Counted from the stretch's first letter, positions 37,908-39,055 are shown. The stretch is 44,309 nucleotides of DNA from a virus (IMGVR_UViG_2684622542_000005), one strand, 5' to 3'. Made by a program: numbers and translations. The notes: generated from the letters alone by a model not told the origin.

Positions 37908-38097
37908 AGCAGCCTCTTACGCTGGCAATTAACCAATTGACTTCTATAAATTAGTTGATTTGTTTGCTTTGCGGTATTCAAATGTACAATCATTCAGCAC
38001 TTATGCGTTACAGCACCGTTTAAAATTAGTGATCAAACTCATAAATTTTCGCTAATGACATTTCGTGTTATTTGTTGTATCAATTAAATAAATCAAA

Positions 38098-38119
38098 TCG
38101 ATCGTTTTTGTCGATCGAT
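38098..38119. promoter_or_regulatory. Two GATC-containing TCGATCG heptamers upstream of com/mom
   Basis: TCGATCG at 38098-38104 and 38111-38117, 45-65 bp upstream of the com start in an AT-rich region. Confidence 0.4.
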
Positions 38120-38163
38120 TGAGTGATAAAGATATCAACAACAAAGCAGGAGGTTATGCGGCC

Positions 38164-38364
38164 ATGTATCGAAACATACGGTGCCGACATTGTAACAAGC
38201 TACTGGCACGAGCCAGCTTCAGTTATCTGGAAGTTAAATGTCCGCGCTGTAAAACCCTCAATCAAATCACATCTCAGAGCGCCACAGAGCACCCCACATA
38301 CACAAGGAAATCCTGTCGTGGGGAACAGAAAGCAAGTTACATCCCGTATCATCAGCACGCCTGA
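38164..38364 (+). CDS. com: Com-like zinc-finger translational regulator of mom
   Basis: [35 protein letters not shown]... parallels Mu Com (CxxC...CxxC, ~62-66 aa); GGAGG upstream. Confidence 0.75.
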
Positions 38365-39055
38365 ACTTATTCACTATAACGACAATATCGTCGGTTATGG
38401 CTCCCGTGAGTTACGGGTTGAGACAATAAGTTGCTGGCTGGCCCGGCTGGTCGTCGTCAATAAACATTACAGCCATCGTTTCGTAAATAATTCCTACCTT
38501 CATCTGGGCATATTTTCAGAACGGGAGCTGGTTGGCGTAATGCAATGGGGTTATGCCCTTAATCCAAACAATGGTGCACGCGTCGTAACTGGCACGCAGA
38601 ACCGCGAATATATGGAGCTTAACCGGTTATGGCTGCATGACTGTATGCCGAGAAACTCCGAATCAAGGGCAATCAGTTACGCGCTCAAACTAATCAGACA
38701 ACTTTATCCGCAGGTGCAGTGGGTTCAGTCGTTTGCAGATGAGCGTTGTGGCTGTCTTGGTGTCGTGTACCAGGCAAGCAATTTTGATTATGTAGGCAGT
38801 CATGAAACAACATTCTATGAACTTGATGGCGAGTGGTATCACGAGATTTGCAAGAATGCAATCAAACGAGGAGGACAGCGAGGTGAACATCTGCGGGCTA
38901 ATATCGACAGAGCCAGTGTTCATAAATTCCGTCAGTTTCGTTACATCCGGTTTCTGGACAAGAGAGCCAGAAAACGCCTTAACACAAAGCTATTCAAAGT
39001 CCAGCCTTACCCAAAACCACAAACAGTTAAAACTGGTTTGAAAGAGAGTGAATGA
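38318..39055 (+). CDS. mom: Mom-like DNA modification protein
   Basis: Frame overlaps the 3' end of com as in Mu; no in-frame ATG after com, so GTG 38318 is proposed (~245 aa); last gene before the right end. Confidence 0.65.

Follow-up and report, generated by a model that had tools for sequence, protein, structure and literature searches.

The window analysed here is the whole of the viral contig IMGVR_UViG_2684622542_000005 (44,309 nucleotides), a Mu-like Escherichia coli prophage with transposase A/B, GemA, one Mor-family gene, lysis and morphogenesis genes, an invertible tail-fibre segment and a gin-type invertase. Near its right end lies a com–mom operon. Such operons are a textbook case of layered control over a toxic anti-restriction function, and the one in the window is an intact copy of the phage Mu kind. 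The assignment of this operon to the right end of a Mu-like E. coli prophage of the Sp18 type, taken together with the working model developed below, is likely to be correct.

The com and mom genes

The com gene occupies positions 38164-38364 of the + strand, from its ATG at 38164 to a TGA ending at 38364, and encodes a 66-residue zinc-ribbon translational activator of the CCCC type. A Shine-Dalgarno (SD) sequence, AGGAGG, can be read on the same strand at 38148-38153. The gene product matches the Pfam family Zn_ribbon_Com (PF10122) over residues 1-43 of 66, with 48.2 bits for a cut-off of 22.9 (E 7.5e-13), as well as the PHROGs families 6417 and 13819 ('translational regulator' / 'gpCom'); a search of its sequence against the PDB returned zero matches. 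All four zinc-ligand cysteines of the CxxC…CxxC pattern are present (C7, C10, C26 and C29) and align with Cys6, 9, 26 and 29 of Mu Com, the roles of these residues being taken from published work (PMC3299994).

The mom gene spans 38318-39055 on the + strand, overlaps the 3' end of com in the +1 frame relative to it, and encodes a 245-residue protein with a GTG start, by homology a tRNA(Gly)-dependent adenine-modifying enzyme. This protein matches the Pfam family Mom (PF25680) with 261 bits (cut-off 27.1, E 7.8e-78), and its alignment with the crystallised Mu enzyme (PDB 8BV8) is free of gaps over residues 5-233. Mu Mom forms N6-carbamoylmethyl-adenine in a Gly-tRNA(Gly)-dependent reaction (PMC13219725), and the window protein is predicted, from its homology, to have the same activity. 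An initial annotation of this DNA had described a Com-like zinc-finger open reading frame (ORF) at 38164-38364 overlapping a Mom-like frame, and both the coordinates and the PF10122 and PF25680 matches bear this out.

The com–mom genes are already annotated across hundreds of E. coli genomes. Fifteen complete E. coli genomes from unrelated sources carry the segment 36800-39200 with 99.9-100% identity, and parts of it are present in 462. In the identical prophages, the positions equivalent to 38164-38364 and 38318-39055 are annotated in RefSeq as a 'Com family' protein and, from the GTG start, as a 'tRNA(Gly)-dependent adenine aminoacyltransferase Mom', respectively. As for the naming of these products, PGAP labels that of com 'Com family DNA-binding transcriptional regulator', in contrast to experimental studies, which present Com as an RNA-binding translational activator, and the Mom homologue is still a 'hypothetical protein' in several RefSeq records.

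A variant Com was seen in the Sp18-type prophage of O157:H7 ECP19-198 (L003 2610-2810), where the sequence KCPRCKT is replaced by KCPRSKT (C29S); the window Com is intact at this position. The substitution removes the fourth zinc ligand and should therefore cripple Com, so that Mom translation would be silenced in ECP19-198.

It could be argued that the window module is likewise a silent relic of a defective prophage, from which no Mom is made. The serine found in place of the fourth zinc cysteine in O157:H7 relatives would agree with this, as would the 'hypothetical' status of the Mom homologue in some records and the location of the prophage inside an insertion sequence (IS) element. Yet both frames of the window are intact, with all four Com cysteines kept, Mom shows a full-length, gap-free alignment with a crystallised enzyme, and the module is 99.9-100% conserved across those 15 unrelated genomes; I consider a silent relic very unlikely.

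The mom start codon

The open stretch of the mom frame extends over 38123-39055. Ahead of the conserved core of Mom, it contains a single in-frame ATG, at 38156, which precedes the com ATG by 8 nt and follows the com SD sequence at a distance of 2 nt; the next one is found near 38540, within the core. Alignment with Mu Mom maps the start to the GTG at 38318, which aligns with the GTG of Mu mom, the two proteins being 78% identical from residue 1, and the RefSeq coding sequence begins there too. The earlier description of the mom frame as lacking an ATG start thus holds in substance, the homologous start being GTG 38318, but not to the letter, as one ATG does exist at 38156.

That ATG opens up a second reading, in which Mom would be made without Com, as a 299-residue protein translated through a long open frame crossing com. 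The frame is indeed open from 38123, and the ATG directly follows AGGAGG. However, the gap between the SD sequence and the ATG is just 2 nt, the N-terminal extension has no homologue, and the same frame is interrupted by stops in Mu and Edwardsiella. An open stretch of 65 codons is expected by chance in about 4% of cases, by my own estimate of (61/64)^65, and the GUG is the start of the RefSeq models as well as of the Mu protein that was crystallised. Initiation at 38156 is therefore extremely unlikely, and the GUG at 38318 is taken as the start in what follows.

Translational control of mom

The target of Com, as defined by experiment, is a CC(N)2-3GAG motif in a hairpin loop, and in Mu the hairpin that carries it adjoins a translation-inhibition (TIS) hairpin, whose stem includes the mom GUG (PMC6483171). 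In the window, a predicted Com-binding hairpin is found on the + strand at 38279-38292 (GCGC-CACAGA-GCAC), with the motif CCACAGAG, of the CC(N)3GAG form, at 38282-38289. Its 4-bp stem contains one C·A mismatch, shared with the nearest E. coli relatives. A TIS hairpin directly abuts it at 38292-38323 (+ strand), in the arrangement known from Mu: CCCCAC (38292-97) pairs with GUGGGG (38318-23), the minimum-free-energy fold being -14.3 kcal/mol. The mom SD sequence, AAGGAA (38304-09), is located in the TIS loop, where it is partly paired, and the GUG start is in the 3' arm. Com-dependent translation as in Mu, which the initial annotation had proposed, is supported by this layout, with the start codon in the 3' arm of one hairpin and the Com motif in the loop of the adjacent one; the search for an RNA hairpin sequestering the mom start that had been advised there leads to the one at 38292-38323.

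The TIS fold alone is ordinary for its composition (z -1.1 to -1.9), and because its energy by itself is unremarkable, the case for the two hairpins rests on comparison. Mom loci from other bacteria were gathered for this (51 fetched, 40 usable), and the analysis covered 42 regions, the window and two com modules without mom among them. Within the 140 nt before the Mom core, the Com motif occurs 1.86 times per locus, compared to 0.36 in shuffled sequences, and in 51% of its occurrences (4.4% when shuffled), the three-base flanks on its two sides are perfectly complementary to each other. The stems around the motif are many and different (AUG/CAU, GCG/CGC, AGG/CCU, AGA/UUU, and others), and covariation of the Com-hairpin stem extends over 34 Mom loci of other bacteria. 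When RNAalifold is applied to seven Enterobacterales modules, both hairpins are recovered and three of the four Com-hairpin pairs covary, while the TIS stem CCCAC/GUGGG is invariant in all seven. A search of Rfam found no family for the Com/TIS element, the lone match (E 0.8) being attributable to chance.

The C-terminal tail of Com is otherwise variable, its most conserved part being the motif 'EHPT', encoded by GAG CAC CCC AC (38287-38297). These bases are also the 3' arm of the Com hairpin and the 5' arm of the inhibitory hairpin, and the conservation of EHPT in the protein is probably a by-product of the RNA constraints.

The number of Com hairpins differs between clades. Com–mom loci of Pseudomonas, Desulfovibrio and Rhodospirillaceae (L008, L026, L033, L038, L042, L043, L045, L047, L048 and L051-L054) possess two tandem CC(N)2-3GAG hairpins, 22-25 nt apart and about 44-72 nt into the analysed upstream regions, while Mu and the window possess one. 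The former arrangement points to a pair of Com sites on each mRNA of those clades. Other loci have a Mom homologue, 68-70% identical to that of the window, and no com, namely Aeromonas phage pAEv1818 (L007 1330-2202) and the loci L020, L022 and L044. In pAEv1818, the mom homologue directly follows a Q antiterminator gene and a terminator-like hairpin, and antitermination may take the place of Com control there.

Mosaic origin of the module

DNA similarity to Mu (72%) begins only at 38367, just after com. At the protein level, the window Com shares 45% identity with its Mu counterpart but 62% with that of a P2-like E. coli prophage, and com with its leader is nearer to the com–methyltransferase cassette of that prophage than to Mu com. 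In this cassette (L006 2488-3421), the Com hairpin, CCCCAC/GUGGGG hairpin and GTG GGG start known from the window precede an N6/N4 methylase (PF01555). An E. coli prophage of the same lineage as the window (L005 2610-3816) has the same com, hairpins and GTG GGG start joined to a C5-cytosine methylase (PF00145), the swap point from mom corresponding to approximately 38331 in the window. Since it is joined to three unrelated DNA-modifying enzymes in E. coli, the translational lock formed by com, the hairpins and the GTG is a portable cassette. In principle, com cassettes with other DNA-modification genes were already known, from phage B3 (ORF47/48), FluMu and Pnm1 (PMC3299994).

A GATC palindrome upstream of com

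The two TCGATCG heptamers reported upstream of com in the initial annotation are located at 38098-38104 and 38111-38117, i.e. 47-66 nt upstream of the com ATG. Both are carried by the 9-bp arms of a perfect inverted repeat, AATCGATCG-N7-CGATCGATT (38096-38120), whose two Dam sites (GATC at 38100-38103 and 38113-38116) are 13 bp apart, start to start, in the context ATCG-N7-CGAT. Over the whole window, there is no enrichment of TCGATCG (6 found, 5.8 expected) or of close GATC pairs (14 found, 13 expected), and the significance of the heptamers therefore comes from their position and homology only.

This homology is extensive. The repeat aligns with GATC2/GATC3 of Mu (AATCGATCGgtaatacaGATCGATT), with the same 13-bp spacing, and the operator core reads ATCGATCGTTTtTgTCGATCGAT / ATCGATCGTTTTTGTCGATCGAT in the window and ATCGATCGTTTaTaTCGATCGAT / ATCGATCGTTTATATCGATCGAT in agn43, a difference at 2 of 23 positions. 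In all lineage variants seen, from E. coli genomes and IMG/VR contigs, the palindrome is invariant, whereas the 16 nt that follow vary freely. Among 2.9 million viral contigs (IMG/VR), ATCGATCG-N7-CGATCGAT occurs 59 times, including 30 times directly upstream of a com ORF; in enterobacterial phages, it marks com operons well. Clusters of two or three GATCs are found in this context in almost all com/mom modules of Enterobacterales, as compared to none or one in those of Pseudomonas, Desulfovibrio and relatives.

The 37-nt consensus for the OxyR tetramer, a degenerate one, is best matched at 38079-38115, with agreement at 13 of 20 defined positions. This score is reached at just 3 positions of the 44-kb window; Mu Pmom scores 13/20 and agn43 14/20. 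The third GATC site of Mu and agn43 is absent, with TATC in its stead, 3 bp out of register. However, in the gtr operon of phage P22, a GATC pair 13 bp apart lies within a single OxyR half-site, and its methylation abolishes OxyR binding (PMC2909390), so two GATC sites can be enough. The resemblance to the Dam-sensitive OxyR sites of Mu, as first described, thus stands as far as homology to Mu sites 2 and 3 and near-identity to the agn43 core are concerned, but not in number, as there are two sites rather than three. Judged from the sequence, Dam/OxyR control of com–mom is plausible.

Alternatively, the palindrome may be an inherited relic, or a site for SeqA, for Fis/H-NS-type silencing of the leader (34% G+C) or for a phage factor, with transcription set by other means. 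The loss of the third GATC, with its TATC out of register, the OxyR score of just 13/20, and the absence of overall enrichment of GATC pairs or TCGATCG in the window are all compatible with this, and Mu Pmom is also repressed by Fis (PMC3378877). The argument is countered by the invariance of the palindrome next to 16 nt that vary freely, by its near-identity (2 of 23 positions differing) to a proven operator core, that of agn43, by its tight association with com genes across IMG/VR and with Dam-containing hosts, and by P22 gtr, which works with two GATCs in one OxyR half-site. I regard this alternative as a serious one, albeit somewhat unlikely, and favor Dam/OxyR control.

Two further assignments in this region were considered and rejected. 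The sequence 'ATCAATTAA' upstream of the palindrome is not a Mu-like remnant of the 3' end of gin, since gin of the window ends differently and agn43 shares ATCAAT; and a strict scan reported the palindrome as a 'terminator' on the - strand, which is senseless at that place.

In addition, 11 IMG/VR contigs carry the palindrome within a cluster of three GATCs (13 and 18-19 bp, the Mu/agn43 pattern), with no adjacent com ORF found (L068, L073, L081, L086, L087, L103, L106, L108, L110, L112 and L116). Dam/OxyR-type operators may thus control further phage genes. Papers on Sp18 and on an O111 methylome gave no data on com–mom expression or on the methylation of these GATCs.

Promoter and transcriptional layer

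A strict sigma-70 scan of the region upstream of com found no promoter on the + strand, its hits belonging to the divergent ORF on the - strand. A relaxed scan, which also recovers the known agn43 promoter and RNA start, gives two candidates on the + strand. Candidate A (38055-38083), the best match on this strand, reads ATGACA-N17-TATCAA, 9/12 to the sigma-70 consensus. Its -10 box begins at 38078, the predicted transcription start is near 38090, and the operator would lie at about +7 to +31, as in agn43. It is kept as ATGACT-N17-TATCAA in the Sp18-type prophages and also, as read by eye, in IMG/VR lineage variants, and homology between lineages begins exactly at 38055. Candidate B (38124-38133) is a weak extended -10-like sequence, TGaTAAAGAT, which would place the operator at about -44 to -20, so that the GATC pair would cover the -35 region, as it does in gtr. 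It is not conserved in the Sp18-type prophages (TGaGAAAGGC). Good -10 boxes are found at the same place in unrelated com lineages (TGtTATCAT in L006, TGaTAGATT in L011), and further ones can be read from the sequences of L114 (TGgTATCAT) and L063 (TATACT).

In Mu, Pmom includes a TTAT-N6-ATAA/CCCC dyad bound by the activator C, which overlaps a poor -35 box (ACCACA), and a 19-bp spacer with a T6 run. The stretch between the GATCs and com contains no TTAT-N6-ATAA, CCCC, -35 or T6 of the Mu type, and in the absence of the C-activator site, -35 and T6 spacer, the promoter geometry is not that of Mu. The distance from the last GATC to the com ATG is ∼48 nt, compared to ∼75 nt in Mu, i.e. the leader is ∼27-29 nt shorter, and that from the last GATC to the -10-like TAAAGAT is 11 nt, compared to 40 nt to TAAGAT in Mu (for the general layout of Pmom, see PMC3378877 and PMC4461284).

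The window has a single Mor/C-family regulator gene (10084-10506; PF08765, E 6.7e-31), located between gemA and the lysozyme gene; a second was not found among the neighbours tested, in contrast to the pair formed by Mor and C in Mu. C-runs are common to the candidate late promoters preceding 10578, 18742 and 25004, and are missing from the com leader. A search for an activator site shared between the com leader and these candidate late promoters (10-mers, ≤1 mismatch) gave nothing meaningful.

These data bear on another possibility, that com–mom is a late operon under the phage Mor/C-family activator, as in Mu, with a site that cannot be recognised by sequence. Mu Pmom is strictly C-dependent (PMC4461284), the one Mor-family protein of the phage is encoded just upstream of the lysozyme gene, and the strict scan found no sigma-70 consensus promoter, all of which would fit. 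On the other hand, the shortened leader is devoid of the Mu dyad, -35 and T6, it has no word in common with the candidate late promoters, and the same short leader is present in the P2-like prophage, which has no Mor/C gene nearby. Control by the Mor/C-family protein is thus unlikely, and a promoter associated with the GATC operator is preferred.

Downstream of the mom stop, a hairpin flanked by A and U tracts at 39086-39132 (+ strand) probably ends the com–mom operon. Its predicted energy is -25.5 kcal/mol (z -3.9), none of 200 shuffled sequences being as stable, and its loop overlaps the first of the right-end repeats described below.

Genomic context

The gin-type DNA invertase gene, at 34106-34678 (+ strand), is identified by its Pfam Resolvase and HTH_7 domains, and by a recombinase annotation in an identical E. 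coli prophage. It is separated from com by 3,485 bp with four genes, compared to a gap of 95 bp in Mu. The proposal that a cargo insertion separates the module from gin is accordingly correct as to the separation, while 'insertion' denotes an inferred direction only. The cargo block (34764-37907) comprises genes for DUF6645, DUF1378 (36962-37156) and DUF826 (37192-37446) on the + strand, and an orphan ORF on the - strand (37614-37907, with the RefSeq start at 37874). The latter is divergent from com, has no Pfam or PHROG match, and possesses its own sigma-70-like promoter, TTGCCA-N18-GACAAT, at 37899-37928. The cargo block has no close DNA relatives in the phage collection, and the slot upstream of com–mom is variable, since a different, longer gene is found there in the Sp18-type prophages.

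The DUF6645 gene seems split into two ORFs (34764-35732 and 35681-36829), but it is one gene, for 684 residues, in an otherwise identical prophage, and the frameshift is an artefact of the masked N run at 35358-35625. The window has three other such runs, at 1323-1578, 11395-11654 and 24327-24598, each of the four being 256-272 nt in length.

The right end of the prophage is at ∼39183, inside a copy of ISEc8 (IS66 family), which follows from 39184. Close to this end, two direct repeats, GTATCAAAT…(A/T)ATCGG, are found at 39102-24 and 39137-59, and are probably transposase-binding sites. Beyond 39184, ORFs resemble the C-terminal part of an IS66-family transposase (39274-39732) and a fragment of a Tn3-family transposase (39755-40231).

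A model for com–mom control

I propose the following model. A single transcript would carry both com and mom, with com translated from the ATG at 38164. The mom GUG (38318) and its SD sequence would be locked in the hairpin at 38292-38323, so that mom could not be translated on its own. Com would then bind the small adjacent hairpin, through the loop motif CCACAGAG, and open the inhibitory hairpin, with the result that Mom would be made only when Com is present. Mom, in turn, would hypermodify adenines of the phage DNA using Gly-tRNA(Gly), and thereby guard it against restriction. Transcription would probably be gated by host Dam and OxyR, with OxyR bound to the unmethylated operator at 38096-38120 and Dam methylation blocking this binding. 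The operator would be on or next to the core promoter, unlike in Mu, and there would be no Mu-type C-activator site.

Several observations weigh against this model. On the translational side, the C·A mismatch leaves three of the four stem pairs of the Com hairpin, and the TIS fold is, as stated above, of ordinary stability. On the transcriptional side, the OxyR match is modest and the third GATC is missing, the strict scan yields no + strand promoter, and the two relaxed candidates imply different geometries. Finally, the com leader has no Mor/C-type site, which leaves the confinement of a toxic gene to the lytic cycle without an explanation.

A bolder version of the model may be envisaged, in which the activator-dependent promoter of the Mu type has, in this lineage, been replaced by one that carries the Dam/OxyR operator directly, as in agn43 or P22 gtr, and expression could be set epigenetically. 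I consider this quite improbable. If true, one possibility is a heritable ON/OFF (phase-variable) state of com–mom in lysogens; titration of OxyR and Dam during amplification of the phage genome could also time Mom late, without a late activator.

The com–mom operon is ordinary in kind, and its rebuilt transcriptional layer is the sole part that departs from the textbook. It represents a clean natural variant, with the translational lock conserved but a different arrangement for transcription, namely two GATCs, an operator located on the promoter, and no C site. It would be convenient for asking what the Dam/OxyR layer does alone; for Mu, phase variation of mom is still an open question (PMC2909390).

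Comparison with known systems

The closest described system is the com–mom operon of Mu (NC_000929 35768-36602). In both phages, the module is at the right end of a transposable phage genome, the genes overlap in the same relative frames, a CCCAC/GUGGG hairpin holds the mom GUG in its 3' arm and the SD sequence in its loop, a CC(N)3GAG hairpin is adjacent, and two GATCs 13 bp apart are part of the same AATCGATC…GATCGATT inverted repeat. The window differs from Mu in having two GATCs rather than three (spacing about 18-19 and 13 in Mu), a shorter leader without C-binding site, -35 and T6 spacer, and a single Mor/C-family gene.

The Sp18-type prophages of enterohaemorrhagic E. coli O157, O111 and O103 (L003, L004) belong to the same lineage, and the presence of Mom and its regulators in prophage Sp18 has already been noted (PMC3299994). 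They are 93-95% identical to the window from 38055 onward, and share with it the palindrome, the Com hairpin, the TIS, the mom start and the kinds of cargo carried. In contrast, the gene directly upstream is another one, the 16 nt between the palindrome and the com SD sequence differ at 5 positions, and the O157:H7 copy examined has the C29S substitution in Com. The cassette of the P2-like prophage (L006) possesses the same short leader as the window and a GATC cluster; this cluster has three GATCs, and the cassette has a good extended -10 (TGtTATCAT) and a methylase downstream where the window has Mom.

For the operator, a close counterpart is that of E. coli agn43 (flu), where the OxyR/Dam core ATCGATCGTTTnTnTCGATCGAT agrees with the window in 21 of 23 positions; the GATC pair of the window, 13 bp apart, aligns with GATC-II/III of agn43, which have the same spacing. 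In agn43 (L061), the -10 box is at 407-412, the RNA start at 418, and the GATCs at +1, +20 and +33; if promoter A is real, the window operator would likewise be just downstream of the transcription start. The agn43 operator has its third GATC 19 bp upstream, where the window has TATC 22 bp upstream, and it governs a phase-variable adhesin. The GATC pairs of P22 gtr, in turn, have the same 13-bp spacing as that of the window.

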